From: Chloroflexota bacterium | Lineage (GTDB): Bacteria > Chloroflexota > Anaerolineae > UBA7937 > B3-Chlor | Assembly: GCA_030603665.1 (NCBI GenBank) | Contig: JAUVXJ010000008.1 | Location: 94,900-158,899, forward strand | Direction: 5' to 3' | Length of the DNA stretch: 64,000 nt | Shown here: piece after piece, positions 4,317 to 34,818 of the stretch | Layout of the letters: the number at the start of each line of letters is the position of its first letter | Numbering within the stretch: position 1 is the first letter of the stretch | The notes under the pieces: model-generated | What the model saw: only the letters and a program-made list of their open reading frames with translations | Told to the model about the DNA's origin: nothing | Database searches by the model: none | Made by a program: the position numbers and the translations under genes

Positions 4317-4342
4317 TAGGCTTGGGAATGTAGAAGGAGGTT

Positions 4343-12665: not shown

Positions 12666-12668
12666 GGT

Positions 12669-13438: not shown

Positions 13439-13511
13439 TGATCACCCCGTTATCTCTGCACTGTCGAGAGCAGGCCGGAACAGCCGTGAGTCGTCGGCTT
13501 GTTGTGTCGAC

Positions 13512-14498
13512 TTATGGCTTGCGTGCGACCGTCTCTTCCCACCCTTCGGGCATGACCGTTGAATCATCCAGCGTTGCTCCTTCGAGAACGGCCTTCAACA
13601 GGTCGGCCTTATGGAGATTGGCCCTCCAGAGGTTGGCTCCTTGTAGGTTGGCATCATCGAGGTTCGCGGTGGAAAGGTCCGCCCCTTCCAGGTTCGCCCT
13701 GGACAGGTCGGCGCTCATGAGGTTGGCCCCTCGAAGGTCGGCGCTGGACAGATCTATCCCCGTAAGGTCACGACGTGACAAGTCAACGCCTTTCAGGCTC
13801 TCTCTCGCCTGATGGTATCGCTTGGCAGCCTCGTAAGCCTCTCGTTTCACCCGCTCTCTCTGTTCTATGTCGGCTGCTCTTGACCTCCACCAGCTTGCGA
13901 GAAGCAGGGGGCCAGCTACCAGCGGAAGCAGGACGCTAGTTCCGGCCACCAGTCTGGCGGCATATGAATGCCCGGGAATATGCCCGGCGACTGGGTCCCA
14001 GACCAAGACAATCCACAATAAGCCATCCAGTATCAGCACCACTCCTCCAACAGCCTCGGAGCGACCTAGGATGAAGACGGTGACGAAGACAGGCAACAAG
14101 AATAGTCCCGCAGAGCAGACAACCTCATCCGGCGTTAACCCCTTTGTACCAGGGCCAAACGCCAAGTAGAGGAATGCGTACGCTGCCCAGGTGACTGTCA
14201 AGCCCCATGCGACATGCCGCGTCAACGTTGGCCTTCGGTCTGCGGTAGGCTTCAGTAGGGACTCAGTCAGCCCTAGTGCGCTCAGAATCAGCTCCACTAG
14301 TGTGGCCACAATTACCTCCTTTCCACCACGGGTCAGGTGACAATGATTCGCCTTGTCTAGGACGAGGTAACGTATGCCAGCAGGTCCGTGAAGTAGGGGA
14401 ATCAGGGGCCCCACCACGATGTTGACACCCGCGGCTACCAACGAACTGCCGGTGCGTAGCTGACTTTCGTCCCTTGCTCGGCGCCACTCTTGCCTCAC
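13512..14498 (-). CDS. polytopic membrane protein with C-terminal pentapeptide-repeat domain
   Basis: Multiple TM helices followed by A(D/N)LxxA(N/D)L repeats (DLSSADLRGANLMSADLSRANLEGADLSTANL...). Confidence 0.75.
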   Translation of the reverse strand: MRQEWRRARDESQLRTGSSLVAAGVNIVVGPLIPLLHGPAGIRYLVLDKANHCHLTRGGKEVIVATLVELILSALGLTESLLKPTADRRPTLTRHVAWGLTVTWAAYAFLYLAFGPGTKGLTPDEVVCSAGLFLLPVFVTVFILGRSEAVGGVVLILDGLLWIVLVWDPVAGHIPGHSYAARLVAGTSVLLPLVAGPLLLASWWRSRAADIEQRERVKREAYEAAKRYHQARESLKGVDLSRRDLTGIDLSSADLRGANLMSADLSRANLEGADLSTANLDDANLQGANLWRANLHKADLLKAVLEGATLDDSTVMPEGWEETVARKP

Positions 14499-15205
14499 CT
14501 GATGGGAACAAAGTCCTCTCCTGCGGGAGGTATCCCCAGAAGGACCACCCTGACGTAATCCTGGGAGGTCCGACGGAACACGTTCACATAGCCCTCGCGA
14601 GTCCTTCGTGCCGACACATACATCACCATGTTTGGGTCAAAGATGGTCTTGCTCACTGCGCTCAACCGGATTCCAAGATCGATGTCCTCAGCAGAGAGCA
14701 GCGATGTGTTGAATCCTCCCACCCTCCAATAGTCACGTGTTCGCACGGCGAAGTTGTTGCCCATGATCATGCCTCTGCCGAGGGTGTAGCTCAGTCTCGT
14801 CCCCCAGTTGCATACGTACCTCGCAGCCCAGCGCTCAAAGCTGTTCCCGTCGTGGACCAGTATGCGACCAGTCACTGCGCCCAGTGTCTCGTCGCTGCGG
14901 AAGGCCCTGGCGATCTGCTGCAACCAGGTCGGCGGGGCGATGGTGTCCGCATCGGTGCCGGCGATGATCTCACCCCTGGCCTCTTGAGCCCCTCGGTGTC
15001 TCGTCCAGCCGACACCCCTCTGCGGCTCGTGAACGACCTTGACTCCGAACCCTCGTGAGATTTCGGCGGTGCGATCTGTACTTGCGTTGTCTGCCACGAT
15101 TATCTCATAGAGTTCGGCCGGGTAGCTCTGGGCGCAGAGCGAAGAGAGGCACTGCCCTATGTACTCTTCCTCGTTGAGCGCTGGTATCACGACTGATATG
15201 AGCAT
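14495..15205 (-). CDS. family 2 glycosyltransferase
   Basis: N-terminal ISVVIPALNEE, with DNASTD and DAD motifs. There is a 4-nt overlap with the downstream pentapeptide gene. Confidence 0.85.
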   Translation of the reverse strand: MLISVVIPALNEEEYIGQCLSSLCAQSYPAELYEIIVADNASTDRTAEISRGFGVKVVHEPQRGVGWTRHRGAQEARGEIIAGTDADTIAPPTWLQQIARAFRSDETLGAVTGRILVHDGNSFERWAARYVCNWGTRLSYTLGRGMIMGNNFAVRTRDYWRVGGFNTSLLSAEDIDLGIRLSAVSKTIFDPNMVMYVSARRTREGYVNVFRRTSQDYVRVVLLGIPPAGEDFVPIR

Positions 15206-15296
15206 CCTCAGCCTCCCATTTCAGACAGTATTCCGGCTGACATCAATGTTGAAGCCTTTCGCGAAGGTAACCTCGCGCGCCGCAGATGCGGTAGGG

Positions 15297-16307
15297 TCAG
15301 GGATTCTCCTCGGCAGAGCCAGTGTTGACCATTTCCCCCGGCCTCTTTGCGGCCTGCGCCAAGCCAAAGCCCGGCACGTATCGGTCCAAGAAATCGTCGA
15401 TGTAGGCCTTGAAGGTCACGGGATCCGTCCTCATGCACTGAGCATGGGGCGCGCCCCAGTCCGTCACATACAGCACCTTGCGATCATGTTTGACATTCGC
15501 GTAGATGGCTTCGGTATGGGCCGGCGATATTGCATCATCTTGCAGGGAATGGATCAAGAAGATGGGGGCCTCTATGTCTCGCGCTGCCAGCATGGGAGAA
15601 ACAGCCGCGGGGTCGAAGTCGGCGCGCCAGCCCGCGAAGAGAAGGACGGTGGGCATCAGGATGGCTCTGGCCAGCGGGCCATATCGTTGCTCCGCCTGTT
15701 CCCCGATAAGCGTTGGCAAGTCCTGGAAGGGCGCTTCGGCGGCCACGAAGGCCAAATCTGGCTCCAACGCGGTCGCTTGCAAGACCGTTGCTGCGCCATA
15801 CGACAGTCCCATCAGGCCGATCTGGGAGACCTCCAGCCCAGTGCGTTCGGCGAACCAGTTCAGTACGGCAAGCGAGTCTTCCTTTTCGTAGTGGCCGTAG
15901 GTGGAGTACTCACCGGTGCTATCGCCGTGGTGCCGCGAATCGAACATCATCAGGTCGCAGCCGCGGTCCCAGAACAGAGGCGCGTACATGAGAGTCTCGA
16001 CTCGAGCGCCGCCGCGACCATGGTGCAGAATCACGCCACAGTCTCCGTTCAACTCGTTCTCGAATAGCCACCCGGAGAGCACGATCCCCTCGCCCAGGTC
16101 GAGCGAGACATCTTCGGGTTGCGGCAGGCCGAGCCCATCCAGGTCATAGGGGCCCATGAACGGCTCTGTACGCTCCCAGGCCTCCTCCAGAGTTTCATGT
16201 TTGTAGGCCACCACCTCAGTGGAGAAGTACCAGCAGTTCCACAGGTAGTAGGCTACAGCCAGGGACACGACGACCGGAATAGCGACCCCAAACACTTTTC
16301 GTTTCAT
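15297..16307 (-). CDS. membrane-anchored alpha/beta hydrolase (paralogue of 33853..34818)
   Basis: SD GAGGAT before the internal ATG (MKRKVFG). N-terminal TM, a GLMGLSYGA nucleophile elbow, and later D and H residues. It is roughly three-quarters identical to the second copy, by eye alignment. Confidence 0.8.
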   Translation of the reverse strand: MKRKVFGVAIPVVVSLAVAYYLWNCWYFSTEVVAYKHETLEEAWERTEPFMGPYDLDGLGLPQPEDVSLDLGEGIVLSGWLFENELNGDCGVILHHGRGGARVETLMYAPLFWDRGCDLMMFDSRHHGDSTGEYSTYGHYEKEDSLAVLNWFAERTGLEVSQIGLMGLSYGAATVLQATALEPDLAFVAAEAPFQDLPTLIGEQAEQRYGPLARAILMPTVLLFAGWRADFDPAAVSPMLAARDIEAPIFLIHSLQDDAISPAHTEAIYANVKHDRKVLYVTDWGAPHAQCMRTDPVTFKAYIDDFLDRYVPGFGLAQAAKRPGEMVNTGSAEENP

Positions 16308-16370: not shown

Positions 16371-17630
16371 CTAGTGTGGATCTTCCTCTGGCTTGCTGGC
16401 GACGATGTTCTTCCAGCCTTGGGGCATGATAGTCCCATCGCTCACCTTTGCTCCAGCGAGGTGAGCGCCCTCTAGGTTAGCCGATTCCAACCGGGCACCT
16501 TGCAGGTTTGCACGAAAGAGGTTCGCGTTGGAAAGGTCTGACCCCTCCAGGTTGGCACGGGATAGATTCGCCTCCGACAGATTCGCCCCTGCCAGTCTCG
16601 CCTCCAAGAGAATCGCTCGCTCCAGATTTGCCCACTGAAGGTTGGCCTCTGTGAGGACCGCGCTCCGCAAGTTGGCAGAGTGGAGGTGGGCTTCCATCAG
16701 GGCGGCCGATCCCAAGTGGGCACCTTGGAGGTTCGCCCGATAGAGGTTCGCATGGGACAGGTCTGACCCTCTGAGGCGGGCACCGGTTAGGTTCGCGTTT
16801 CTGAGGTTTGCTCCTGCGAGAAGAGCGCCCTCTAGATTGGCCCCTTCCAGGTCGCCATACCGCAGATCAGCCTCTTCGAGGTCTGCTCCTTTGAGGACCG
16901 CACTCTGCAAGCTAGCACGGTAGAGGTATGCTGCCTGCAGGTTCGCTCCCTCCAAGTTGGCCTCTTGGAGGTTGGCCCCAAAGAGGTTCGCATTCGACAG
17001 GTCAGACCTTTCGAGGTTGGCACGGGATAGATTCGCCTCCCTGAGACTTGCCCCTACCAAGGAGGCCTCCGGAAGAATCGCCCCCTCCAGATCTGCCCCC
17101 GGTGCGTACGCCCCTTGGAGCTCGGCCTTGGAGAGCTCCATCCCCGTCAAATGACTACGGATCATGTCAGCCCCGAGCCGGCGCGCCCCTCGCGATGCCT
17201 CTCGCGATGCCGCTATTCGGTCCCACATCTCAGCGACCTCAGCGCCCAGGCCTTTCGCCGCCCTCCAGCCTAAGACAGCGACGAGAGCCAGCAGAGTCCC
17301 GAAGATAAGGACCATCTGCAGGCAGGCGGCGCTGGGATTCGAGGAGACCCACTCCGGGAAAGTTTCCACCGCTCCCTCCCAAAGCCCGAACAACACGCAA
17401 ACTGCTGTCGAAATCAGCAAACCTCCAAGGGGGCCCAGCACCTTGTACGTAGCGGGGACTCGCCGTTTTGGCTGCGGCCTACTTCCCTCCGGACGGGACT
17501 CCGCCTGAAACGCCCTTTTCAACTTCATGGCCTCCTCACCAGAGGGGGCCTGTGTCAGGCTCATACCGCACTCGGAACAGAAAACCGCGTCAAGGGCGTT
17601 CTCGGTCTGGCAGTTGATACAAAGCTTCAT
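16371..17630 (-). CDS. zinc-ribbon / 3-TM / long pentapeptide-repeat protein
   Basis: CINCQTEN...CSECG ribbon, TM helices, then about 230 aa of uninterrupted pentapeptide repeats. Confidence 0.8.
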   Translation of the reverse strand: MKLCINCQTENALDAVFCSECGMSLTQAPSGEEAMKLKRAFQAESRPEGSRPQPKRRVPATYKVLGPLGGLLISTAVCVLFGLWEGAVETFPEWVSSNPSAACLQMVLIFGTLLALVAVLGWRAAKGLGAEVAEMWDRIAASREASRGARRLGADMIRSHLTGMELSKAELQGAYAPGADLEGAILPEASLVGASLREANLSRANLERSDLSNANLFGANLQEANLEGANLQAAYLYRASLQSAVLKGADLEEADLRYGDLEGANLEGALLAGANLRNANLTGARLRGSDLSHANLYRANLQGAHLGSAALMEAHLHSANLRSAVLTEANLQWANLERAILLEARLAGANLSEANLSRANLEGSDLSNANLFRANLQGARLESANLEGAHLAGAKVSDGTIMPQGWKNIVASKPEEDPH

Positions 17631-21023: not shown

Positions 21024-21082
21024 AGTCTTTCGCCATACTGTGAACACACTCTCGAATGAGCCCCAGTTCGCTGAACTCCCGG
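21024..21082 (-). promoter_or_regulatory. copy A (degenerate) of the dispersed palindrome + phased-heptamer + -10 element, upstream of the PEP-utilising gene
   Basis: Minus sense: GGAGTTCAGCGAACTGGGGCTCAT-TCGAGAG-N4-TTCACAG-N8-AAGACT, then 16 nt to the ATG at 21007. Confidence 0.45.
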
Positions 21083-21093: not shown

Positions 21094-21795
21094 CTAGCAC
21101 ATGCCAGGCTGGGTTTCATCCGCTGGTGCGGATCGTTGCCTGCCCCGAAGCCACTCCACGATAAGCACGATTCCGGCCACCAGGGGAGCAGCGAACAAGC
21201 TGCCAACAACGAGAAACAGCAGCCGCTGCTCTTCGGCTTCAGTGCCCATAGCCCCGAACGATAGGCTGAACCACCATAAGCCGACACAGAGCCATGCAGC
21301 AGCCACAGCGACGCTCGTCAGAAGCCCCGCGGCAAGGGCCGCTGCCCACTTGCGACGCGGTATCCTGTGCGTGGCGTTCGCGCGGAGCCTCGCGCCGGAC
21401 CACAGCATCCATGCCCCCGCACCCGCGAGAATGGTGGAGAAAAGAGATGCCCCAAGGTAAGGTACCACCTCTAGAGCCCGCGCAGTGGGCAGAAACTTCA
21501 ACCAATGAAAGAGCGAGGGGAGCCAATATACCATCGCTGGCACGCCCAGAACTACCAAGACTCCGCCCCACACGAACCTGGTCATCCGACCACGTTGCGA
21601 TGCGCTCCAGTCACTCCTCCACCTGCCTGCCCCGGACGACACCATCCACGCCCCCAGACCGGCGTTGACGATAGCGCCGAGCAGAGGGATCAGAAAGATC
21701 AGGGGCTCCCCCCCCCAATCGCCCACGCCCACTCGAACATGAAAAGAGAAACAAACGTCGCTGGCACACCGACACCCAGCAAGACCCAGCCACAC
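21094..21795 (-). CDS. integral membrane protein (hypothetical)
   Basis: Long ORF with about 6 hydrophobic helices rich in Trp and Gly. The exact start is uncertain. Confidence 0.5.
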   Translation of the reverse strand: MWLGLAGCRCASDVCFSFHVRVGVGDWGGEPLIFLIPLLGAIVNAGLGAWMVSSGAGRWRSDWSASQRGRMTRFVWGGVLVVLGVPAMVYWLPSLFHWLKFLPTARALEVVPYLGASLFSTILAGAGAWMLWSGARLRANATHRIPRRKWAAALAAGLLTSVAVAAAWLCVGLWWFSLSFGAMGTEAEEQRLLFLVVGSLFAAPLVAGIVLIVEWLRGRQRSAPADETQPGMC

Positions 21796-21867
21796 ATGAA
21801 CCTAGCCATCAAATCATCCTCCTTTCCCCTTCTATCCTCCTCCGGTGTTTAACAACCCTTCACTCTC

Positions 21868-21924
21868 AGTCTGCCACATGGATTTCAAACTGCTCTCAAA
21901 CGGGTCCCAATTCGCTGAACGCTG
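21868..21924 (-). promoter_or_regulatory. copy B of the dispersed element, upstream of membrane-protein gene 21094..21795
   Basis: Minus sense: CGTTCAGCGAATTGGGACCCGT-TTGAGAG-N4-TTGAAAT-CCATGTGG-CAGACT. Confidence 0.5.
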
Positions 21925-22774: not shown

Positions 22775-22893
22775 CTCTCTTTGAGTTCTTCGCTATCCTC
22801 TCTAGGGAGCCCAAGTGCGCTGAACTCCGGTAATCCTACTCAATAGATCGCCCGGCCAGCGAAGAAGATCATCGCAAGTATGTAGCTGACCAT
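22775..22893 (-). repeat. copy C of the dispersed element plus a decayed duplicate of the last ~28 codons of gene 24730..25431
   Basis: 22807-22893 aligns with 24736-24822 at roughly 75% identity by eye. It translates MVSYILAMIFFAGRAIY*VGLPEFSALGL, against SYVVAMLFFAGWGIYWGGLPEFSELGLI in the intact gene. Confidence 0.6.
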
Positions 22894-22947: not shown

Positions 22948-24468
22948 TCACGAACCAGGCAGCACACTGCTCCGTTGGTGCACCGGCTGCCGATCCTCAT
23001 TTGACAACAGGGTGGCATACGGGCCGAGAAGATCCTCGTACAGGCGGTGATAGAACTCCGGCAAACTCTGTGACTCTCCCTCGTGAAAGGCCCTGAACTG
23101 CGGATCTGTCTTCATCTGGTGTACGAAGCCTCTGAGTCTTGCGACCATTTGTCGCATGCCCAGGGCTCGTGTGAGATGTATCAAGCGTACGATGCCCGAC
23201 GTAGACTCCAGTCTCCTGCGCAGCATCTTGCCGGATGTCAAGTGCGAAAGGATCTCGATGTATCTCTCATAGTAGGTCATGGGGCTGTAGTGCTTCAGTC
23301 TGGTCGCCAGGTAGGGACCCCAATAGAAGGCGAAGGGCATGGAGGTGAGCACCCGTCCTTCGTCTAGATGCTGCTCATATAGTGGTGTCCCTCCGAAGGG
23401 AGTGGGGACGCTGATCAGCGGCCAGACGAATGGAGCTCGGGTGATGAACTCCTTGGTCAACTCCACAGGTTCATCGCCTTCGTCTACGTCAAGCCCAAAG
23501 ATGAAGTTGGCCTGTAGCGCCGGAACATGGTCCCGTATCTGCTCGAAGTGCTCCACCACCCGCTCCAGCTTCTCTCTCCCTGTCACCGCAGACCCAGCAC
23601 CAGCCTTGTTCGAGTAAGCCTTCCACGATTCAACTCCCGGAGCGATGGCGACGAAGCCGACATCTCCGAGTCGCTGCAATCGGGTGGGGCGCAGGATGGA
23701 TAGGGAGCACTCCATGACGTATCGTTTGCGCCCGTCGTGAGATACGCTCTCTAACACCTCTAGCACCTGGTCGAACTTGATGCCGAAGTTGGCGTCGTGG
23801 AAGGCGACCAGCACCCCGGGATACTCCTGCAGGATGAAGCGCAGATCCGACTCCAGTCGCTCCAGAGAGTGTGGTACGTAGGGAGTGTTCCAGTCGACGC
23901 AGAAGTCACAGCTGTATGGACAGCCCGTACTTGTCAGCAATGGGATTGAGGCCAAAGCATGGGGCCTGCCTCGCCAGAAACTGGAGGCGCGGATATACGG
24001 CATTCGCTCTTCCACGCTGGGGACATCCGTGAGCATGCGGCCGCTGGTCACGATCCGCCCCACGGGAGGTTCAAACAGGATGTCGGCGATCAACCTCTTG
24101 TCGCAGTGACGCACTACCACGTCAAAGAACCGCGCGCAGTCATCCGGGAATCCCTTGGCGTGAGCGCCGCCGATGACGGTAAGTGTGTTCTCCCGCCGGT
24201 AGAGCTTCGCCAAAGCATAGGCCAAAGGACTGGCCTGTGTATGGCTTGAGATGAATACCAAATCGAGATCGTTCGGGAGGAGCTGTTTGGGATCCTTCTG
24301 TCCGTAGTAGGTAGCATAGAACACCTCATGGCCAAGGCTCTGGCACCACACGCTCACGGCCTGGGGCATGACGCTGGCGTTCTGCTTAAGGGCCAGATGT
24401 GCATATCCCTTCTGATTCCAAGGGGTATTGACCGCGGCGTTCAGTAGCTCGAGGACTCCTACCCTCAT
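22948..24468 (-). CDS. B12-binding-domain radical SAM protein
   Basis: AGAGGAG SD before the internal ATG (MRVGVLEL). N-terminal Rossmann-like B12-binding-type domain (VFISSHT...TVIGGAH), then the CPYSCDFC CxxxCxxC motif. Confidence 0.85.
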   Translation of the reverse strand: MRVGVLELLNAAVNTPWNQKGYAHLALKQNASVMPQAVSVWCQSLGHEVFYATYYGQKDPKQLLPNDLDLVFISSHTQASPLAYALAKLYRRENTLTVIGGAHAKGFPDDCARFFDVVVRHCDKRLIADILFEPPVGRIVTSGRMLTDVPSVEERMPYIRASSFWRGRPHALASIPLLTSTGCPYSCDFCVDWNTPYVPHSLERLESDLRFILQEYPGVLVAFHDANFGIKFDQVLEVLESVSHDGRKRYVMECSLSILRPTRLQRLGDVGFVAIAPGVESWKAYSNKAGAGSAVTGREKLERVVEHFEQIRDHVPALQANFIFGLDVDEGDEPVELTKEFITRAPFVWPLISVPTPFGGTPLYEQHLDEGRVLTSMPFAFYWGPYLATRLKHYSPMTYYERYIEILSHLTSGKMLRRRLESTSGIVRLIHLTRALGMRQMVARLRGFVHQMKTDPQFRAFHEGESQSLPEFYHRLYEDLLGPYATLLSNEDRQPVHQRSSVLPGS

Positions 24469-24668
24469 GCACAAATCTCCTCTTGGCCAGCGCCAGGCCA
24501 TGCCTGCACGTGCATTGGCTGGGAGGTTCCGCCAGCCTACTCACACGGCACAGGCATTGCCGCCGGGGTTCGCGACGACAGAGGAAGGCATGTGCACCGC
24601 TGTCCCCGTATCATCGCTCACCCCCTTGCGAGACCGCTTTCCTCGTGATTTTGATAGTCTACAGTTAC

Positions 24669-24759
24669 AGTCTAGCAGACAGGTCTCAAGAAGATCTCAA
24701 ATCGCGTCCTTGCGGGTCTCAAGAAGGCCTCAAATGAGCCCCAGTTCACTGAACTCCGG
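24669..24759 (-). promoter_or_regulatory. copy a/D (best copy) of the dispersed element: palindrome AGTTCAGTGAACT, four TTGAG(A/G)N heptamers on an 11-bp grid, N8, TAGACT
   Basis: Heptamers sit at 24733-24727, 24722-24716, 24700-24694 and 24689-24683 (minus sense). The hexamer is at 24674-24669. The upstream part overlaps the last codons of gene 24730..25431. Confidence 0.6.
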
Positions 24760-25431
24760 TAGTCCTCCCCAGTAGATCCCCCAGCCTGCAAAGAACAGCA
24801 TCGCGACCACGTAGCTGAAAAGGAAGAAGAGCAGGAGGGGCTCCTCGCGAAGCTTGTGCCTCCCCCATACCAGACCAGCCATTGTCACTGCAATAGCGAA
24901 GGGAATGCCCAAGAGCGCGGTTTCGCCTTCAACGACTATGGCGAAGAACGTCAGGCCGTGGATGATCCCTGCCAGGACCACAATACCTGGCGATGATCTC
25001 TCTCCCGTGAACGGGTTTTGCCATTGCCGAATCAGCAACAGGGCGGAAAGCCCCACAACCCCCAGGTGCCACAAGTAGTGGCTCAAGACCTCGTCATAGA
25101 AACTGGTGAGGATAGAGGCATCACTGCCAGTCATCTCCTCCAGCAGATGGCCAATGGAGTTGGCGGCCAGGTGCATGCCTTGACCCTGAACCCAAAGTGC
25201 CGCCAGAACCATGAAGGCCACGCCTTCGCCAAGGCTGGGTTTCTTCTCTTGCCCAACCTGGTACAAGAGCCAATAGAGAGGGATGAGGAGCAAGGGGGTT
25301 AGGAGGTCAAAGACATCGCCCAGCTTCATCAAGGGGTATGGGCCAAACTGAGTCTCTAGGACGGGCGGCCCCATGAAGAACACCGCGAAGGCTACAGAGA
25401 ATACGAGGATCAAGCGATGCAAGCGAGACAT
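24730..25431 (-). CDS. integral membrane protein (hypothetical, about 7 TM)
   Basis: AGGAGG lies 6 nt before the ATG at 25431 (MSRLHRLILVF). The protein is hydrophobic throughout and ends LPEFSELGLI. Confidence 0.65.
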   Translation of the reverse strand: MSRLHRLILVFSVAFAVFFMGPPVLETQFGPYPLMKLGDVFDLLTPLLLIPLYWLLYQVGQEKKPSLGEGVAFMVLAALWVQGQGMHLAANSIGHLLEEMTGSDASILTSFYDEVLSHYLWHLGVVGLSALLLIRQWQNPFTGERSSPGIVVLAGIIHGLTFFAIVVEGETALLGIPFAIAVTMAGLVWGRHKLREEPLLLFFLFSYVVAMLFFAGWGIYWGGLPEFSELGLI

Positions 25432-25782
25432 AGCAGGCCTCCTATTCACTGGGGACGCCCGGCGCCAAGTCACCGGCATGGGCCTTCCAAGCCATATACC
25501 GTCCTACGAGGTAGCCGCCCTTCGTCTCTTCATCTGAGCCCTCCTTTGATCGCAGCTCAGTCTCATATATACGTGAGAGGCGACTATGGCGCGCCGGTGC
25601 ATTCTCTGGCCGGTCAGGGGTCAGCGCACACGGCGAGATCCTCGGTCTGTGCGATTGGTGCCAATGGAGCAGTCTAGCTGCGCTCAACGTCGGCAGGCGC
25701 TCCTCTTCCGGCGCCCGTCGGTCGTGGTCTAGACTCCAGGGGTCCCTCCTCCCATGTGGAGTCCTTGGAATCAAGAGCAGGC

Positions 25783-25815
25783 AACGAAAAGCCCGCCTGC
25801 TTGCGGCAGACGGGC
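25783..25815 (-). terminator. intrinsic terminator GCCCGUCUGC-CGCAA-GCAGGCGGGC-UUUUCGUU
   Basis: 10-bp GC-rich stem (one G-U pair), a 5-nt loop, and a U-tract immediately 3'. Confidence 0.6.
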
Positions 25816-25919
25816 GTCTGTGGTAAGGTAGCACGCAGCCGAGGTGCCCGTCCCGCGCCTTGGCCATAGCCTCACCGGTTCTGCAGGACCAGGTGAGGCT
25901 TCCTTTTGTGGAGCGTTGT
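25783..25919 (-). ncRNA. candidate ~135-nt small RNA or terminator/antiterminator leader
   Basis: Bounded by a consensus promoter (25954-25926) and an intrinsic terminator (25815-25783). It contains a 9-bp hairpin AGCCUCACC/GGUGAGGCU, and a GACGGGC segment able to pair with the 5' arm of the terminator. Confidence 0.45.
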
Positions 25920-25925
25920 GGAACT

Positions 25926-25954
25926 AGTATACCAGATGCTGCCACATTTGTCAA
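25926..25954 (-). promoter_or_regulatory. sigma70-type promoter TTGACA-17 nt-TATACT
   Basis: Read directly on the minus strand: TTGACAaatgtggcagcatctggTATACT. Confidence 0.6.
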
Positions 25955-26168
25955 GCACTCTAGATAGTACGTACGATACATTAGACACTGGCACAGTCCT
26001 GGCTCTGCATGCGGAACCAGATCATGGGGCGGACGTGGCGTACTGCCAGTGCGGCGGAGGCGAAGAACCCTTCGGCCGCCGTATCCCGTTACGCCTCTCG
26101 TCGCCCTTCGTCGTTGCATCCTACATCACCCCACTGCACACAAACCTCGCTCGGGTTTGTCGACCAAC

Positions 26169-26200
26169 AGCCTAGCATAAGGGTCTCAAAATCGTCTCCG
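26169..26200 (-). promoter_or_regulatory. copy c of the dispersed element (short form), divergent from the SARP-like regulator gene
   Basis: Minus sense: GGAGACGATT-TTGAGAC-CCTTATGC-TAGGCT. Confidence 0.5.
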
Positions 26201-26328
26201 TGATTTGGCTTGACCTTGATCTCTCCGAGTGGATTCGCAGCAGGGATCGTCTCTTGCGGCAGGAATCATCATCATGAATGCTCTGTGTGCCATGCCCAGG
26301 CGCGCAGTTGCTTCAAGCGGAAGAAAGG

Positions 26329-26357
26329 TTGCGTTGGTCTTCCCATTGTGGTAAACT
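26329..26357 (+). promoter_or_regulatory. possible promoter of the regulator gene (TTGCGT-17 nt-TGgTAAACT)
   Basis: Hexamers and an extended -10 TG read from the sequence, about 90 nt before the ATG at 26446. Confidence 0.3.
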
Positions 26358-26445
26358 GAGGCATCACGCCTGGGCGTAGAAGTCGGCCTCATGACGATGT
26401 AGCCGCGCGTGCAGCTACGGGCAGTTTCTTGAAGGAGGTCTTACG

Positions 26446-29400
26446 ATGCCTACACTGCGCTTCTACTTGCTGGGTACGTTGGACATCCACCGCGATGGCG
26501 ACCGCCTGCCGAAGCCCCCGACGCTCAAGTCTCAGTCCTTGCTGGCCTACCTGGTCGTCCATCGTCACAGGCCACAGTCCCGGGATCGGCTGGTCGGGCT
26601 CTTCTGGGGAGACCGCCCAGAGCGCAAGGCGCGCGGATCTCTATCTACCGCCCTCTGGCACATCCGTCGTTGTCTCCCCGGAGACTGCGTGGACAGCGAT
26701 CCCCAGGCGGTACAGTTTGACCCCGAGAGTGATGTCTGGCTGGACGTTGAAGAGTTCGAGTCCTGCGTCTCCCAAGATGACATCACTGCCCTTCAATCGG
26801 CGGTGGCACTGTACCGTGGTGACCTCCTGGACGGCTTCTACCATGAGTGGGTGATCGATGAGCGGTACCGGTTGGAGACGCTGTTCATGGAGGCGCTGGC
26901 GCGACTGATGGCGGGACTCGAGGCGAGGGGAGTGAGCGATTCCTCTCTAAGCGTGGCCCTGCGGTTGCTCGAGAGAGACCCGCTGCGCGAGGATGCGCAC
27001 CGGTTGGCGATGCGAGCGTACTGCCGTCTGGGTCACCGCAACGCCGCGTTGGAGCAGTACCGCCGTTGCTGTGAGATCGTGCGGGAGGAGCTGGGCGCGG
27101 ATCCGATGGTGGAGACCACCGAGCTGTACGAAGAGATCATGGAAGGGCACTTCCCAGCTGGCCCAGTGCCGGAGGTAGTTCCGCCCACCGCGGCAGAGAT
27201 CCGACCGGCGCCCATCGCTGGGCGTAGTCCGTTGGACGTCATGGGACGTAGCAGGCTGCTAGGCAGGGATGACGAACTGGCGTTCCTGGACGAATGCTGG
27301 CAGCAGGCGGAAGAGGGGCGGGGAAAACTGGTGCTGATGAGCGGCGAGGCGGGCGTGGGCAAGAGTCTCATCGCGGAGGAGTGCGCCAATCGCCTTCGGG
27401 CGCAGGGCGTGCGCGTCCTGTGGGGTAACTGCTACGAATACGGCAGGGCCTTGCCCTATCAACCCGTTGCCGAAGCGCTGCGAACGGTTCTGCCGAGCCT
27501 GACATCGCAGGAACTGACGGACTTCCCTTCCTGGTCGCTGCAGGAGGCGGCTCGTCTCGTGCCAGAGGTGCTGGAAAAGCGCCCTGGGCTCGAAGTCACG
27601 CCATCCATTCCCTCGGACGAGCAGCGAGCGCGGCTTTACGAGGGAGTGGCGCGTGTGCTTACTGGAATGTGTTCTCTTGGACCCATCCTCATCGTCCTGG
27701 AGGACCTTCAGTGGGCCGGCGGTTCCACGCTGCAACTGATCCACTATCTGGCCAGGCGACTGACTGATCATCGCGTACTGATGCTGTGCAGCTTCCGGTC
27801 TGAAGAGGTTGGGCTAGGGCACCCTTTGCAGGCCTTGCGGCGGCGACTGATTCGGGACGGGCTGGCGGTGCTTCTCCGCGTGTCACGCCTGTCTCCGTCG
27901 GCGGTGGAAGCGGTGGTTAGGGATATGTCGGGGGCGGGGGATGAGGTGCTACCCCTGGCGAAGAGGCTGTATCGAGAGACGGAGGGCAACGCGTTCTTCT
28001 TGATAGAGACGGTCAAGGGTTTGTTTGAAACAGGCGCCATAAGGTTGGAGGGAGGAGTCTGGAGGGGCGACTTTGCCGGGATCAGCGAGGGGAAACTTGC
28101 CTTGCCCTCCAGCCTGAGTGAGGCCATCGGGGCACGGGTTCTCAACGTGACTGAAGACGCGCAGGAGGCGGTGTGTCTCGCCTCTGTCCTTGGTCGCGAG
28201 TTCGATTTCGACTTACTCGACGCTGTCTGGGGTCAAGGTGAAGGGGCGACGTTGGAAGCATTGGACGATCTGCTTCGCAGTCGACTGATAGACGAGGGCA
28301 GCGGGGCCGAGGCACGCGATTACGTCTTCACCCATCACAAGATCCAGGAGGTTATCTACTCTTCGATGTCACGCCGCCGGCGACAGCGGGCACACGCACT
28401 TGTGGGGACGGCGATGGAGAGTCTCTATCGCGCCCCCACGGAGGATTTGGCTGGTGAACTCGCCTTCCACTTCCAGGAGGGACGGCGGCACGACAAGGGG
28501 CTGACGGAGAAGGCGATCACCTACCGGCTTCAGGCGGGGGATCGGGCGCGCACGCTGTACGCCCACCAGGAAGCGATCGACCACTACGAGCAGGCCCTCG
28601 CGTTGTTGAAAGAAGAGATGAACTATGAAAAGGCTGCGAGGACGCTGATGAAGCTGGGGCTGACCCATCACAATGCCTTTGACTTCCAGCAGGCGCGCGA
28701 GGCCTTCAACCAGGGGTTTGCGCTACGGCAGCTGGCGGGCGAAGACCGGCCCTCAGATGCGCGTGCGCCAGCACCTCAGTCCCTCAGAGCGGCCTGGCAC
28801 GTTTTTGCGGTTGACCCAGCCATGGCCGAGGACTTTCCTTCGGTCGAAGTTGTAAGGCAGCTCTTCAGCGGCTTGGTAGACCAGAGTGCAGAGATGGACG
28901 TAGTACCGGACGTGGCCAGAAGTTGGGAGGTGTTGGAGGGCGGGCGCAAGTACGTCTTCCATCTGCGGGACGACGTGCACTGGAGCGACGGCAAGCCGGT
29001 GACGGCCGGGGACTATGAGTATGCCTGGAAGCGGGTGCTCAACCCGAAGGGCGGATCGGCCGGCGCTCTGATCCTGTACGACATCAAGGGAGCGAAGGCT
29101 TTTCATCGGGGAGAGATCACCGATCCGGGCATGGTTGGCGTGCGCGCTCAGGATCCGCTCACCCTGGTCGTGGAACTAGAGGGACCAACCAACTATCTCC
29201 CCCATTTGATGAACCACTGGCTAACATACCCTGTGCCCCGCCATGCCGTTGAACGATACGGAGAGGGTTGGACGGAGGTTGAGAACATCGTCACCAATGG
29301 CCCTTTCAGGTTGGAGTCCTGGCGGCCGGGGAGGTCCATGACCCTGGTGCTTAACTCCGACTACCATGGCCGGTTCAGGGGCAACGTGACGCGGGTCGAA

Positions 29401-30267
29401 CTGGCCTTGGACGTCGAGCCCCGCGACGAGTTGCGGATGTACGAGGCTGACGACCTCGACATCGGCTATCTCTGGGAGTTGTCGCCCCTGGAGATGGACC
29501 GCGCTCGCCAGCGTTACGCGGATGAATACCTGTCCGGACCCAGTCTCGCCACCTGGCTTGTGGACTTCAACATGGGTGAGCCGCCATTCGACGATGTTCA
29601 GGTGCGGCGAGCCTTCGTTATGGCGACCGACCGAGAGACGTTGGCCGGAGTGGACATGAGAGGGCACTTCTTCCCGGCCACAGGTGGGGTCATTCCTCCC
29701 GGCATGCCGGCACACTCGGTGGGGATCGCACTTCAATACGATGTTGAAGGGGCACGACAGCTCTTGGCCGAGGCAGGCTATCCAGAGGGCAGCGGCTTCC
29801 CCGCAGCTGTCTTCCTGTCACCACCAAGTCCTGCCGTTCAGCAGGCCATTGAACGGCTGCAGGTTCATTGGGAGGAGAAGCTGGGTGTGGAGATCTCGGT
29901 GGACACAAGGGACTGGCCAGACTACTTCGATAGACTCCGCAAAGGGCAGGGCCAACTGTTCTTCAGCTCATTCATGGCGCGCTACCCCGATCCCGACCAC
30001 TGCCTGCGAGGGCTTTCCAGCGGGCAGCGCACACGGGGGTGGAACGAAGCCTACGCTGGGTTGCTCGAGAAAGCCAGACGGGCCATGGACCAAGAGGTCA
30101 GGATGACGTTGTATCGGCAGGCGGATCGAATCCTGATCGAAGAAGCACCGGTCATACCCATAGGCTATGGACGACAGCACCTGTTGGTGAAACCGTGGGT
30201 GGGCAAGCTCCCTACCTCGGCGATCAAGTACTTCTTCTGGAAGGACGTGACCATCGAGCCACACTAG
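26446..30267 (+). CDS. SARP-type wHTH + BTAD + AAA/NB-ARC-like ATPase + TPR regulator fused to a C-terminal family-5 solute-binding (OppA/DppA-like) domain
   Basis: GAAGGAGG SD. The N-terminus LLGTLDIHRDG....P..KSQSLLAYLVVH......R..L..LFW is OmpR/SARP-like. BTAD helices run to about residue 240, followed by a GEAGVGKS Walker A and TPR-like helices. From about residue 800, VPDVARSWEV..GGRKYVFHLRDDVHWSDGKPVTAGDYEYAWKR continues to the end and is SBP_bac_5-like. No TM or signal peptide was seen. Confidence 0.85.
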   Translation: MPTLRFYLLGTLDIHRDGDRLPKPPTLKSQSLLAYLVVHRHRPQSRDRLVGLFWGDRPERKARGSLSTALWHIRRCLPGDCVDSDPQAVQFDPESDVWLDVEEFESCVSQDDITALQSAVALYRGDLLDGFYHEWVIDERYRLETLFMEALARLMAGLEARGVSDSSLSVALRLLERDPLREDAHRLAMRAYCRLGHRNAALEQYRRCCEIVREELGADPMVETTELYEEIMEGHFPAGPVPEVVPPTAAEIRPAPIAGRSPLDVMGRSRLLGRDDELAFLDECWQQAEEGRGKLVLMSGEAGVGKSLIAEECANRLRAQGVRVLWGNCYEYGRALPYQPVAEALRTVLPSLTSQELTDFPSWSLQEAARLVPEVLEKRPGLEVTPSIPSDEQRARLYEGVARVLTGMCSLGPILIVLEDLQWAGGSTLQLIHYLARRLTDHRVLMLCSFRSEEVGLGHPLQALRRRLIRDGLAVLLRVSRLSPSAVEAVVRDMSGAGDEVLPLAKRLYRETEGNAFFLIETVKGLFETGAIRLEGGVWRGDFAGISEGKLALPSSLSEAIGARVLNVTEDAQEAVCLASVLGREFDFDLLDAVWGQGEGATLEALDDLLRSRLIDEGSGAEARDYVFTHHKIQEVIYSSMSRRRRQRAHALVGTAMESLYRAPTEDLAGELAFHFQEGRRHDKGLTEKAITYRLQAGDRARTLYAHQEAIDHYEQALALLKEEMNYEKAARTLMKLGLTHHNAFDFQQAREAFNQGFALRQLAGEDRPSDARAPAPQSLRAAWHVFAVDPAMAEDFPSVEVVRQLFSGLVDQSAEMDVVPDVARSWEVLEGGRKYVFHLRDDVHWSDGKPVTAGDYEYAWKRVLNPKGGSAGALILYDIKGAKAFHRGEITDPGMVGVRAQDPLTLVVELEGPTNYLPHLMNHWLTYPVPRHAVERYGEGWTEVENIVTNGPFRLESWRPGRSMTLVLNSDYHGRFRGNVTRVELALDVEPRDELRMYEADDLDIGYLWELSPLEMDRARQRYADEYLSGPSLATWLVDFNMGEPPFDDVQVRRAFVMATDRETLAGVDMRGHFFPATGGVIPPGMPAHSVGIALQYDVEGARQLLAEAGYPEGSGFPAAVFLSPPSPAVQQAIERLQVHWEEKLGVEISVDTRDWPDYFDRLRKGQGQLFFSSFMARYPDPDHCLRGLSSGQRTRGWNEAYAGLLEKARRAMDQEVRMTLYRQADRILIEEAPVIPIGYGRQHLLVKPWVGKLPTSAIKYFFWKDVTIEPH

Positions 30268-30463: not shown

Positions 30464-30495
30464 TTGAGAATCTTTTGAGACCGCCGTGGTACCAT
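30464..30495 (+). promoter_or_regulatory. copy d of the dispersed element (plus orientation): TTGAGAA-N4-TTGAGAC-CGCCGTGG-TACCAT
   Basis: Same heptamer spacing (11 bp) and the same 8-nt gap to a TAnnAT hexamer as the minus-strand copies. It lies about 200 nt upstream of ORF 30699. Confidence 0.5.
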
Positions 30496-30698: not shown

Positions 30699-30914
30699 AT
30701 GACCGAACCATCCGGAGTTCCCCGCGTGATCACCTTTGTGGTCCGTTTCTGGCGAGAGTGGTCCGCTGCTGGCATGCGCTGGCGGGGACGCATTCAACAC
30801 GTGGAGAGTGGGGACGCGGCCTCATTCACGGATTTGAACAAGATGATGCGCTTCCTTCGTTCTTCAGGTGCATTGGGCGAGGACGAGAGCCTGCCCGAAG
30901 AGCTAGAGGAGTGA
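30699..30914 (+). CDS. small conserved-looking hypothetical protein (71 aa)
   Basis: Purine-rich SD. The pattern VITFVVRFWRE....WRGRIQHVESGDAASF.DL..MMRFL resembles small proteins I recall from Chloroflexota and cyanobacteria. That comparison is from memory and unverified. Confidence 0.45.
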   Translation: MTEPSGVPRVITFVVRFWREWSAAGMRWRGRIQHVESGDAASFTDLNKMMRFLRSSGALGEDESLPEELEE

Positions 30915-31047: not shown

Positions 31048-32511
31048 TCATCCTGTTTGGGCGTGGCCAGGCGGTCTCGGCTCCCGAATCTTGAGCAGGG
31101 TCAGCGAAGAGAGGAGAAAGCACACGCCGTAGATGGAGAAGATCACCAAATAGCCCAACCCTGGACTGCTCATGTTGAAGAAGTCAGCCATGGGCCCGCC
31201 GATCCCCGCGCCCACCACGCCCGCGCCCGCACCTGCCAGGTTGGAGATACCGAGATACCGCCCTGCCTCGTCGGGGGGCACAAGGTCGGTCCCCAACGCC
31301 CAGTTGGTGGAGATGAAGAGCCCCGTGGCCGACCCGATGATCAAGCCGCTGAGGTAGATCGTAGACAGGTCTGTGGAGACGAGGAGCAGGAAAGTGCCTC
31401 CCGCAGCGAGCAGGCCAGCGATCAAAAGGAGGCGCTTGCGGCTGAATCGGTCGGCCAGGAAACCGCCAGCCAGAGCCGCGACGCCGGTGAACAGCCCTAC
31501 CACCGCAATGAGGAGGGCTGTGGCCTGACCAGGATTGGACAGCTTGACCACATCTTGAAGGAAGAACCGCGCGAAGCCCTGGATGGAGCCTACCGCTGCG
31601 AAGAATAGCAGACGGTTAACGACCCACCAGACGAAGGAGGGGTAGCGACGCACTCCCTCACCGATGCCCACCCGCGCGCTCAGCCAGACGCCCACCACGA
31701 TAGCGCCGGCCATGGCCACCAGCCCGGCCAGGCCCACAGCCACCAGTTGCAGGACTCCACTCTCCCTCAGCAGGGCACCCACCAAGCCCACCAATCCTCC
31801 GGAGACGCCGGTGGCCACCACGAAGATCAAGGTTAGCAGCACGATCCGTATCACGGGCGGCTTGAGCGGCGTCAGCGGGCTCTCTCGCAGCGGCTCCTCG
31901 CGAACCGTCATCGTGGGCAGCATGGTGATGAATAGCGGGATCATGACCACCAGGATGGCGAGCTCCACCCGCCCCTGATCGACAAGCACCCCGATACCTG
32001 GCAGGAAGAGCACCGGCAGTAGCTGCATCACCGCCATCACGCCCGAGGCTTTCCCGCGCTGATCCTCCGGAACCAGGTCGGGGATCAAGCCTTGATAGGC
32101 GCCATGGGCGATGTTCGAGGAGAATTGCAGGAAGAGAACGGCGATGAGGAGCATCCAGAAACTGCCTGACACGGCGACGAGGGCCAGGAAGACTAGGTCT
32201 AGGAGGGTGCCTGCGAAGATGAAAGGCCGTCGCCGACCCCATCGCAGCGTCGATCGATCGCTGAGCATGCCAGCCAGTGGCTGGACCAGGATAGCGACGA
32301 CGAGACCTGCGGATCTGAGACCACCATAGTAGGTGTTCTTCAAGGCTTCGGGCACGAACTGCTGCACCAGATAGGGCATGATGACGGGGGTCAGACTGAC
32401 AGTGACGAAGCCCATCCCCAGCCAGTATGCGTTGATGGTGAGGTACTCTATGCCTCGCAGCTTGGGCGTGCGTCCTTGCGCTTGATCTACTGTGGGTCTA
32501 GCTTCTGTCAT
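31048..32511 (-). CDS. MFS transporter
   Basis: 12-14 TM profile. The loop motif SDRSTLRWGRRRPFI between TM2 and TM3 is typical of MFS/GPH-like carriers. Confidence 0.85.
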   Translation of the reverse strand: MTEARPTVDQAQGRTPKLRGIEYLTINAYWLGMGFVTVSLTPVIMPYLVQQFVPEALKNTYYGGLRSAGLVVAILVQPLAGMLSDRSTLRWGRRRPFIFAGTLLDLVFLALVAVSGSFWMLLIAVLFLQFSSNIAHGAYQGLIPDLVPEDQRGKASGVMAVMQLLPVLFLPGIGVLVDQGRVELAILVVMIPLFITMLPTMTVREEPLRESPLTPLKPPVIRIVLLTLIFVVATGVSGGLVGLVGALLRESGVLQLVAVGLAGLVAMAGAIVVGVWLSARVGIGEGVRRYPSFVWWVVNRLLFFAAVGSIQGFARFFLQDVVKLSNPGQATALLIAVVGLFTGVAALAGGFLADRFSRKRLLLIAGLLAAGGTFLLLVSTDLSTIYLSGLIIGSATGLFISTNWALGTDLVPPDEAGRYLGISNLAGAGAGVVGAGIGGPMADFFNMSSPGLGYLVIFSIYGVCFLLSSLTLLKIREPRPPGHAQTG

Positions 32512-32645
32512 GATTCTTCCTCCTTCGTCACGCTGTCACCCAGGGCCTTCGACTAGAAGCCTCCGTCGGAGACCACACTCCAAGAGACGGAGAGGCGACA
32601 AGGGGACAGGGAGGTAGGGCAGGGGTAGAGCCTCTGCCCCTCGGT

Positions 32646-33852: not shown

Positions 33853-34818
33853 TCACTCTTCGATCTCCACCACGCCAAACCCAGCGACGTACTGGTTCAG
33901 GAAAGCGTCCATGTAGCCTTTGAAGGCATCAGGGTCTGTCTTGATGCACTGAGCGTGGGGCGCATCCCAATCGGTCAGAAACAGCGCCTTCCGGTCGTGG
34001 GCGATGTTGGAATAGATGGCTTCGGAATGGGACGCGGGGATAGATTCGTCTTGCAGCGAGTGGATCAAGAAGACGGGTGCCCGGATGTCTCGCGCGGCCA
34101 ACATGGGCGAGACCGCCGCAGGCTCGAAGTCGGCGCGCCAGCTCGCAAAGAGAAGCACGGTGGGGATCAAGACGTACCTCCCGAGGGCGCCGTACCGCTC
34201 CTCCGCCTGTTCCCCGAGAAGTGTAGGCAAGTCCTGGAAGGGCGCTTCGGCAGCAACGAAGGCCAGGTCTGGCTCCAAAGCGGCTGCCTGCAAGACGGTT
34301 GCCGCGCCATAGGACACGCCCATCAGGCCAATCTGGGACGTCTCCAACTCGGTGCGCCGGGATAGCCAGTCCACGACCTGCAGGGTATCTTCCTTCTCGT
34401 AGTAGCCGAAGGTGGCGTACTCGCCAGTGCTCTCACCGTGGTGCCGGGCATCGAACATCACCAGGTGACAGCCGCGGTCCCAGAACAGAGGGGCGTACAT
34501 GAAGGTCTCCACTCGGGCGCCCCCACGACCATGGAGCAGCACGACGCCGCAGTCGTGGTCTAGCTCATTCTCGAAGAACCACCCTGAGAGGACGATGTCG
34601 GCGCCCACAGCGAGCGAGATATCTTCCGGTTCCGGCAGACCCAGTTCATCCAGGTCATACGGGCCCAGGACTGGCTCTGTGCGCTCGTGGATCTCTTCCA
34701 AGGTGCTTTGTTTGAAGGCCACGACGGCGCCGGATAAATACCAGCAATTCCAGAGGTAGAAGCCGGCCACCAACAGCAGGACGACCAACATAGCAGTCCC
34801 GAGCACCTTGCGTCTCAT
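33853..34818 (-). CDS. membrane-anchored alpha/beta hydrolase (paralogue of 15297..16307)
   Basis: GGAGGAGG SD before the internal ATG (MRRKVLG). GLMGVSYGA nucleophile elbow. It is collinear with the other copy over its full length. Confidence 0.8.
   Translation of the reverse strand: MRRKVLGTAMLVVLLLVAGFYLWNCWYLSGAVVAFKQSTLEEIHERTEPVLGPYDLDELGLPEPEDISLAVGADIVLSGWFFENELDHDCGVVLLHGRGGARVETFMYAPLFWDRGCHLVMFDARHHGESTGEYATFGYYEKEDTLQVVDWLSRRTELETSQIGLMGVSYGAATVLQAAALEPDLAFVAAEAPFQDLPTLLGEQAEERYGALGRYVLIPTVLLFASWRADFEPAAVSPMLAARDIRAPVFLIHSLQDESIPASHSEAIYSNIAHDRKALFLTDWDAPHAQCIKTDPDAFKGYMDAFLNQYVAGFGVVEIEE

Follow-up and report, generated by a model that had tools for sequence, protein, structure and literature searches.

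The closest described counterpart of the locus reported here is the AfsR-afsS system of Streptomyces coelicolor. At the afsS promoter the downstream repeat lies 8 bp from the -10 element, and the upstream repeat covers a non-functional -35 with a 20-bp spacer (PMC11301090); helix alpha-3 of AfsR makes base-specific contacts through Q81, R87, T88 and R92 (PMC11301090). AfsS, for its part, binds AfsR and raises its promoter affinity (PMC10972967, PMC10832544). A 2024 review describes SARPs (Streptomyces antibiotic regulatory proteins), the family of AfsR, as 'exclusively found in actinobacteria' (PMC10972967). Here we describe direct repeats of a TTGAGAC-type heptamer, placed 8 nt before a -10-like hexamer, in a 64,000-nt stretch of DNA (the window; GC content about 0.60) from a Chloroflexota bacterium (assembly GCA_030603665.1, contig JAUVXJ010000008.1, positions 94,900 to 158,899). 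The elements share with SARP boxes the direct heptameric repeats, the 11-bp register, the 8-bp proximal offset and a suboptimal -35 that the repeats overlap. Judged from sequence and by analogy with AfsR, we put the probability at roughly 0.8 that they are activator-dependent promoters of a local regulon under the SARP-type regulator encoded in their midst, at 26446-30267; the heptamers are very probably docking sites of this neighbouring AfsR-like activator.

Repeat elements in the window and in related loci

Seven copies of the element were listed in the initial annotation of the window, and their quoted sequences and coordinates are all correct. They are given here under the same letters.

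Copy a, 24733->24669, minus strand: TTGAGGC-CTTC-TTGAGAC-CCGC-AAGGACG-CGAT-TTGAGAT-CTTC-TTGAGAC-CTGTCTGC-TAGACT. It consists of a distal pair TTGAGGC/TTGAGAC (24733-24716, minus), a proximal pair TTGAGAT/TTGAGAC (24700-24683, minus), a degenerate middle unit AAGGACG between the two, and a gap CTGTC+TGC followed by the -10 TAGACT (24674-24669, minus); the transcription start is predicted at about 24662, and the predicted target is a B12-binding radical SAM gene (24501/24468-22948).
Copy b, 37138->37074, minus strand: a five-position layout like that of copy a, with -10 TAGCCT at 37079-37074; the predicted target is a PT-rich lipoprotein gene (37023-36364).
Copy c, 26169..26200, minus strand: CGGAGAC-GATT-TTGAGAC-CCTTA+TGC-TAGGCT, divergent from the regulator gene.
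Copy d, 30464..30495, plus strand: TTGAGAA-TCTT-TTGAGAC-CGCCG+TGG-TACCAT; the predicted target is the gene of a small, 71-aa protein.
Copy B, 21868..21899, minus strand: TTGAGAG-CAGT-TTGAAAT-CCATG+TGG-CAGACT, weakened, the first base of its -10 being off consensus; downstream lies a membrane-protein gene (ATG at 21809), split by a frameshift at a run of nine G (G9).
Copy A, 21024..21055, minus strand: TCGAGAG-TGTG-TTCACAG-TATGGCGA-AAGACT, followed downstream by a phosphoenolpyruvate (PEP)-utilising (PPDK_N) gene (ATG at 21007) and plsY.
Copy C, 22775..22889, minus strand: the last ~30 codons of a 249-aa gene as a relic, together with a destroyed promoter; non-functional.

Bare TTGAGAC occurs 8 times in the window, about as often as expected (7.7), and six of the eight copies fall inside sites a, b, c and d. 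TTGAG-N6-TTGAGNC has five exact matches, against 1.25 expected even with one mismatch permitted, and TTGAGAC-N8-TANNNT has four, against 1.44 expected with one mismatch. We scored the window with a position weight matrix (PWM) of 39 columns trained solely on 37 sites of other genomes, and took as the null the best score per window in 30 shuffled windows (mean 2.9, sd 4.1, maximum 14.5). Copies a and b both score 43.0, d 41.5, c 25.8 and B 21.9, the last still above the null maximum; lower down come the distal pairs of b (16.3) and of a (11.1) and copy A, whose 8.4 lies inside the null range, and copy C gives no signal. No score in the rest of the 64 kb exceeds 2.6. All real matches lie between 21.8 and 37.1 kb, surrounding the regulator gene, and each of them points at a downstream gene. 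Other parts of the initial annotation need amending. Its seven copies come down to four strong ones (a, b, c and d) and a moderate one (B), with A within chance and probably not a functional SARP box, and C dead. Its statement that all copies are intergenic does not wholly hold for copy a, in whose first heptamer lies the TGA stop of the open reading frame (ORF) 24730-25479. Its reading of copy c as proximal heptamer, gap and hexamer is right as far as it goes, and overlooked the distal heptamer CGGAGAC.

On their sequences, A, B and C are decayed segmental duplicates of 'gene end + promoter a' and not as independent occurrences, because the upstream block GAGTTCAGYGAACTGGGGCTC common to a, A, B and C (4 copies against 0.09 expected; repeat families D10 and D12) is the coding end of a 249-aa membrane-protein gene. 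At copy a the block encodes the C-terminus (..LPEFSELGLI*) of the protein of ORF 24730-25479, and the 3' coding end of that gene (24736..24818, minus, ..FFAGWGIYWGGLPEFSELGLI*) is its source. Upstream of copy C the homologous 90 nt (D12, 78%) translate to SYILAMIFFAGRAIY*VGLPEFSALGLP, with an in-frame stop. We had considered the GTTCAGYGAAC block as a palindromic operator or an RNA hairpin, and rejected both, as copy C translates as a stop-interrupted C-terminus of the 249-aa protein. The heptamers of A, B and C match the distal pair of a, and copy B may still be weakly active.

Conservation was assessed in the window plus 80 loci (1.145 Mb), three of them orthologous metagenome loci (L001-L003) and 77 from named genomes, nearly all Anaerolineae, Anaerolineales, Ardenticatenales, Caldilineae, Thermoflexales or other Chloroflexota metagenome-assembled genomes (MAGs). 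The start-to-start spacing of TTGAG..TTGAG peaks at 11 nt (22 matches against a background of ~2) and again at 33 nt (11 matches), with no peak at 22 nt, and TTGAGAC-Ng-TANNNT peaks at g=8 (22 of 106) and g=19 (11), the remaining gaps having ~1 each. The pattern TTGnnAn-N4-TTGnnAn-N8-TAnnnT is matched 49 times in the 81 sequences, whereas 24 control geometries in which spacer or gap was shifted by 1-2 nt (spacers 2, 3, 5 and 6; gaps 6, 7, 9 and 10) gave 0-1 matches each. The site consensus is T-TTGAsAC-yTTT-TTGAsAC-C-N3-gTGs-TAnnCT. In 40 of the 49 sites the two heptamers share their free dinucleotide (positions 4-5), and TGn is enriched immediately upstream of the hexamer. The 8-nt gap between heptamer and hexamer that had been noted earlier is therefore exact in length; its last three nucleotides, mostly TGn, had escaped mention, and the gap would be read as N5 + TGn, usually an extended -10.

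The N4/N8 geometry is kept in about 30 genomes with unalignable flanks, and the site persists next to orthologues of the regulator and next to its distant relatives, amid diverging flanks. In a five-genome alignment upstream of the small gene (A3), the heptamers, the -10 and the ribosome-binding site (RBS) are invariant and the ~200-nt leader is full of substitutions and indels; copy d is an invariant island in this alignment. Copy c has orthologues at L002 9523, L004 1163, L005 831 and L006 182. Apart from window copies a and b, a second heptamer pair at -33 occurs at one place, L002 3754; a single pair is the family norm, and the 65 nt with two pairs at a and b represent a local extension of it. 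Among the 45 relatives with an intact regulator ORF and 3' flank, 34 have a site (at most one mismatch; 27 exact) within 700 nt 3' of the stop codon and on the same strand, compared with ~1.3% of random 480-nt segments; at that position the gene of a ~70-aa protein is the most frequent one. In the window, 196 nt separate the regulator stop codon from copy d. At L003, L026 and L028 the ATG of the small gene follows 7-8 nt past the hexamer, the geometry of a leaderless mRNA, and this spacing gives independent support for the -10 assignment.

A scan of metagenomes for the exact motif returned at least 120 loci; among the matches listed, the regulator is present on the short contig in 8 of 25 high-GC and in 0 of 95 low-GC ones, and the high-GC subset is the informative one. 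The low-GC matches (L082-L200) include ~45 contigs, many from the human gut, that share TTGAGAC-TAAC-TTGAGAC-TGTCTCAT-TACAAT. This gut-contig element has no SARP regulator nearby, and its match to the pattern is coincidental.

The same data bear on the explanation that the elements are a duplicated promoter cassette, that is, ordinary or alternative-sigma promoters whose heptamers are tandem, -35-like relatives of TTGACA, with no dedicated activator involved. Copies A, B, C and a are demonstrably segmental duplicates that took part of the upstream gene along, identity between a and b is 76% across 67 nt (family D16), and the ancestral heptamer TTGACAC includes the canonical -35 hexamer; an extended -10, furthermore, can function without a -35. 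However, the proximal and distal heptamers stand 9 and 20 nt from the hexamer, not 16-18 nt, so that neither is usable as an ordinary -35, and a sigma-70 consensus scan called none of the sites. Exact geometry in ~30 genomes with unalignable flanks is not the mark of recent duplication, and both repeats change together and in step with the regulator helix (see below), which a shared sigma factor would not show. We regard a promoter cassette of this kind as highly improbable.

The regulator and the match of its helix to the heptamers

The regulator gene and the domains of its product (residue numbers, Pfam E-values) are as follows.

26446..30267, plus strand: regulator gene, 1273 aa.
Residues ~1-100: winged helix, OmpR-type, with recognition helix A62-RGSLSTALWHIRR-C76.
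Residues 28-80: Trans_reg_C, sub-threshold (E 0.003; 18.0 bits against a 26.2-bit cut-off).
Residues 113-231: BTAD (PF03704; E 1.1e-25).
Residues 270-446: AAA_16 STAND ATPase (E 6.5e-29), Walker A GEAGVGKS.
Residues 707-761: TPR_12, marginal (E 1e-06; 29.2 against 30.1 bits), in a TPR region of ~700-760.
Residues 819-1194: SBP_bac_5 (E 1.3e-70).

By HMMER alignment, residues 3-380 match the AfsR structures 8k60/8jke/8hvr from the winged helix on (E=1.6e-13): residues 3-101 correspond to the DNA-binding domain of AfsR, and the alignment extends through Walker A to residue 380. EmbR (2fez) is matched with E=1.3e-8, and PF00486 is recorded in many homologues of the regulator. With these alignments and the BTAD match, the SARP-type regulator that had been placed amid the copies proves to be a genuine SARP-domain protein. 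Pfam finds no NB-ARC match in it, and from its sequence the ATPase would be a STAND ATPase of a subfamily other than NB-ARC, closer to that of SARP-LAL proteins. The regulator has more than 1,288 full-length relatives; those that bear a name are labelled 'SARP family/ABC oligopeptide substrate-binding' and stem from bins of Chloroflexi or Anaerolineae. The closest named ones, at 81-82% identity, are from Anaerolineae bacteria, and the window is thus almost certain to belong to this class.

Between lineages the heptamer differs at positions 4-5, and the recognition helix differs alongside. Sorted by residues 64/67 of the regulator, the sites fall into the following classes.

G or A / S: TTGAGAC in 14/14 sites.
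R / S: TTGACAC in 8/10.
R / A: TTGACAC in 4/4.
R / T: TTGGCAC in 10/11.
H / A: TTGATAG in 3/3.
S / S: TTGCGAC/TTGAGAG in 2/2.

In the HMMER alignment residue 67 lies opposite R87 of AfsR and residue 68 opposite T88. A neighbour-joining tree of residues 111-760, from which the DNA-binding domain is excluded, shows that the classes are not single events. R64 with TTGACAC is deep and widespread; the RT|GC sites make up a clade, inside which L016 (RA|AC) falls, and turn up again in the distant L049; and AG-type sites occur with G/A64 and separately with H64 (L075). We estimate some 6-7 concordant switches of helix and site. As an argument from sequence, this covariation is the strongest in-silico one that the SARP protein, and not another factor, reads the heptamers. 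One locus, L030 (CAYMKL010000021.1), carries two tandem paralogous modules of regulator and small gene, with regulators at 3482-6826 and 10001-13378 whose helices have R64 and H64, respectively, and with sites at 6858, 7509 and 13558 that mix TTGAGAC and TTGACAC; it may be a snapshot of specificity divergence after duplication.

The covariation also bears on the alternative that another OmpR/PhoB-type response regulator, for example a PhoP-like one encoded elsewhere, binds the repeats, the SARP gene being a mere neighbour or target. An 11-bp direct-repeat layout is generic to winged helices of the OmpR/PhoB family (PMC11301090), and Streptomyces PhoP and AfsR compete for the same sites, with documented overlap at afsS (PMC10972967). 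Genes related to phosphate occur in the window, among them a PstS-like one (PBP_like_2, 48202-49164) and one for a phosphodiesterase (10733-12454). The TTGACAC variant, moreover, is one that we take to resemble Gram-positive PhoP half-sites. Yet there is no PWM match upstream of the PstS-like gene or outside 21-37 kb, no other Trans_reg_C regulator among the 40 window ORFs scanned and no such response regulator common to L001-L003. The site accompanies the SARP gene itself in those 34 of 45 genomes, and its variable bases co-vary with the SARP helix, as an unlinked regulator would not predict. We consider a foreign response regulator very unlikely and the SARP protein the better candidate.

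Predicted targets and other features of the window

In the regulon predicted from the positions of the sites, copy d would control the ~70-aa protein, copy a the B12-radical SAM enzyme, and copy c a membrane protein, an untranslated RNA or both. Copy b would control an envelope/proteolysis operon that encodes the PT-rich lipoprotein, PD40 propellers, an S15/S9 hydrolase and an MFS transporter.

The gene of the 71-aa protein (30699..30914, plus strand) has the core TFVVRFWREWSAAG.RWRGRIQHVESG...F.DL..M..FL, and across loci the core of the ~70-aa family is TFVVRFWREWSAAG.RWRGRIEHVQSG...F.DL..ML.FLRRFG. The gene is found in ~50 related loci, including relatives with just 30-37% regulator identity, and almost always near a SARP-STAND regulator: upstream of it in L030, L055, L062 and L080, elsewhere a few kb downstream. 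The family comprises 1,351 clusters at 50% identity, of 60-100 aa and unannotated. There is no Pfam match at E<=10 and no fold match in the PDB (Foldseek), a word-indexed homologue search gave no functional lead, and no internal repeats are seen in the family alignment (A2). A long beta-hairpin plus a helix is predicted for the protein (pLDDT 76).

At copy a, promoter and ~60 nt of leader are 77% identical to L003 15592-15682. Just past the -10 the segment TAGACTGTAACTGTAGACT is conserved with TAGACTGTTACTGTACACT of L003 (window 24610-24700, minus), and the same region holds another -10-like hexamer, 13 nt past the first. In L003 the conserved region runs straight into a 391-aa gene; in the window a 25-aa stub ORF (24614-24537) precedes the radical SAM gene, and the leader measures ~160-200 nt. 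At copy b the lipoprotein gene is followed on the same strand by PD40, S15/S9 hydrolase, PD40 and MFS genes, to 31048.

Between copy c and the 249-aa gene at 25479-24730 lie ~690 nt that show no coding signal (no codon periodicity at 25480-26170). In blastn and tblastx comparisons the stretch shows no conservation save its promoter end. We do not count the mechanically called ORFs 25442-26119 and 37135-37797 as genes, because their translations are Arg-rich and junk-like and they show neither a Pfam match nor codon periodicity. On the minus strand of this stretch a near-consensus sigma-70 promoter (25954->25926; TTGACA-17-TG-TATACT, 11/12 matches) is followed by a strong terminator-like hairpin (25815->25791; 10 bp, 8 of them GC, then TTTTCG), which transcripts from copy c would reach after ~370 nt. 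Promoter and hairpin suggest a candidate small RNA of ~135 nt within window 25785-25954 (minus), which folds at -62.1 kcal/mol (z = -2.5), has no Rfam match and shows no conservation among the 80 related loci. A comparison of the whole window with Rfam gave no match at gathering thresholds, and one of 24400-26450 gave none at E<=1, so the long leaders are not known riboswitches.

The membrane gene downstream of copy B (21094-21809, minus) starts MARFMCGWVLLGVGVPA... and changes frame at the G9 run GATTGGGGGGGGGAGCCCC (21697-21720), where the change could reflect a pseudogene, an assembly error or a slippage tract; it also contains an internal duplication (21534-21586 against 21758-21810, 77%).

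Several further features lie outside these sites. Two adjacent minus-strand genes at 12.6-13.4 kb have in common, with 86-87% identity, a 5' gene end with RBS and start codon (reverse complement ...GGGAGGA-N-CCATGACAGAAGC...; 12522-12570 and 13314-13362, also 12605-12672 against 13378-13445), and the MFS gene of the b operon shares it more weakly (32476-32524). A 300-nt direct repeat (15345-15644 against 33856-34155, 76%) links the S15/S9-type hydrolase gene of the b operon with its paralogue at 15159-16067.

13512-14498 and 16371-17630: pentapeptide-repeat paralogues.
45337-46764, minus strand: 475-aa protein with an MtrA (tetrahydromethanopterin S-methyltransferase subunit A) domain, unusual outside methanogens.
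54050-57631, plus strand: 1193-aa protein with PMT_2/STT3 glycosyltransferase, PA14 and NHL-propeller domains.

Proposed mechanism and comparison with known systems

If the hexamer is taken as -12..-7, the heptamers would lie at about -38..-32 and -27..-21, and two regulator winged helices would sit side by side on one DNA face, on the two 11-bp-phased heptamers. The bound domains would take the place of the -35 and recruit the RNA polymerase (RNAP) holoenzyme, as established structurally for AfsR at afsS, and by homology with AfsR the SARP domains could contact sigma region 4, the beta flap and the C-terminal domain of alpha (alpha-CTD) (PMC11301090). The extended -10 (TGnTAnnnT) would provide the remaining promoter contacts and add strength. 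At a and b the second pair, three helical turns upstream (-33/-44), probably holds a second dimer, which would fit STAND oligomerisation. Activity is presumably gated by the AAA_16/TPR part (ATP) and by a ligand of the C-terminal SBP_bac_5 domain, which would be cytoplasmic.

A regulator bound in this way might instead mainly repress, or act as an autoregulatory roadblock by promoter occlusion. The bound region overlaps the -35 position, as is typical of repressors (PMC11301090), and AfsR and AfsS repress avermectin production in S. avermitilis (PMC10832544). But these promoters have no usable -35 unless protein is bound, and both BTAD and an offset of 8 bp are hallmarks of SARPs that activate by contacting RNAP directly. 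Finally, the exact phasing relative to the -10 is conserved, which activation needs and simple occlusion does not. A mainly repressive role is, in our judgement, scarcely likely, and we retain activation as the proposed mode.

The SARP-box reading, already put forward in the initial annotation, is supported in that the geometry, the defective -35, the regulator domains, the cross-genome conservation and the covariation all hold. Several points weigh against it. Every comparison sequence is metagenome-assembled, and the site counts cover the window and related loci. Eleven of the 45 regulators are without a recognisable site just 3' of the gene, and the site stands directly upstream of only 14 of 51 small genes. 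The Trans_reg_C match of the window protein itself is sub-threshold, its winged helix resting on the AfsR/EmbR alignment and the Pfam matches of homologues. The scan for other regulators covered 40 of the window ORFs. Copy c is followed by ~690 nt without a gene and by a terminator-like hairpin. The covariation is partly confounded by shared ancestry, with independent events numbering ~6-7 and not 49.

A broader reading can be offered tentatively, and we would give it well under even odds. It would take the regulators as Chloroflexota-wide one-component NLR/STAND-like sensors (SARP winged helix, BTAD, AAA_16, TPR and cytoplasmic SBP_bac_5), each switching on a ~70-aa partner through a SARP box; the resulting feed-forward loop would resemble AfsR-AfsS and would have originated, or survived, outside Actinobacteria. 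A code would match helix residues 64/67 to heptamer bases 4/5, with at least five orthogonal pairs, which would be those of TTGAGAC, TTGACAC, TTGGCAC, TTGATAG and TTGCGAC. The small protein could bind the TPR or SBP module as a co-activator, or else it could, along with the regulon's radical SAM enzyme, peptidases and MFS exporter, give rise to a peptide signal that the SBP domain senses.

Chloroflexota have almost no known transcription-factor binding sites, and more than 1,000 full-length relatives in this phylum that keep the full promoter architecture would extend the SARP mechanism to a second, largely uncultured phylum. Two helix positions set against two heptamer positions make a testable specificity code for SARP winged helices and a possible set of orthogonal activator/promoter pairs. 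The fusion to SBP_bac_5 suggests a ligand-gated SARP, and the small partner protein, in its 1,351 unannotated clusters, gains a first functional context. The closest named relatives, from Anaerolineae, Anaerolineales, Ardenticatenales, Caldilineae and other Chloroflexota MAGs, lie outside the Actinobacteria to which the family has been confined, and that restriction is a taxonomic habit, not a structural criterion. A literature search combining SARP with Chloroflexi or Chloroflexota found nothing relevant, its incomplete coverage being no proof of absence.

With AfsR-afsS of S. coelicolor the locus shares a regulator that begins with an OmpR-type winged helix and BTAD and continues with a STAND-type ATPase and TPR, two direct repeats on one face with an 8-bp offset and a 20-bp spacer to a defective -35, and, in topology only, a best-conserved target that is a small-protein gene adjoining the regulator. 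It differs in phylum (Chloroflexota), in having AAA_16 in place of NB-ARC, in TPR not coming last and in the extra C-terminal SBP_bac_5 domain of ~450 aa, a fusion outside the architectures listed in the 2024 review (PMC10972967). The afs box is CGTT(T/C)ATCGNN, whereas the repeat consensus here is TTGAsAC, and no Ser/Thr-kinase input is evident. AfsS and the 71-aa protein, which has no visible internal repeats, bear no evident relation and homology looks unlikely, as judged without direct sequence comparison.

Heptameric direct repeats with 4-nt spacers over the -35, and a regulator gene inside its own cluster, are shared with ActII-ORF4, DnrI, PimR and SanG, and the combination of a SARP domain with an AAA-type ATPase is shared with SARP-LALs. 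The classical SARP consensus is TCGAGxx, in contrast to TTGAGAC here, and unlike the pathway-specific SARPs this one has no obvious antibiotic cluster, its targets being envelope, protease and radical SAM genes and the small protein. From the PHO boxes of PhoB/PhoP and class II-like activation by the OmpR family the locus differs in the regulator, which has BTAD and STAND domains and no receiver domain, and in the lack of a site at the pstS-like gene; tandem winged helices on 11-bp direct repeats replace the -35 there, as they would here. The mechanism is thus a familiar one; what is unexpected is its taxonomic reach, the size of the family and a recognition code that can be read.

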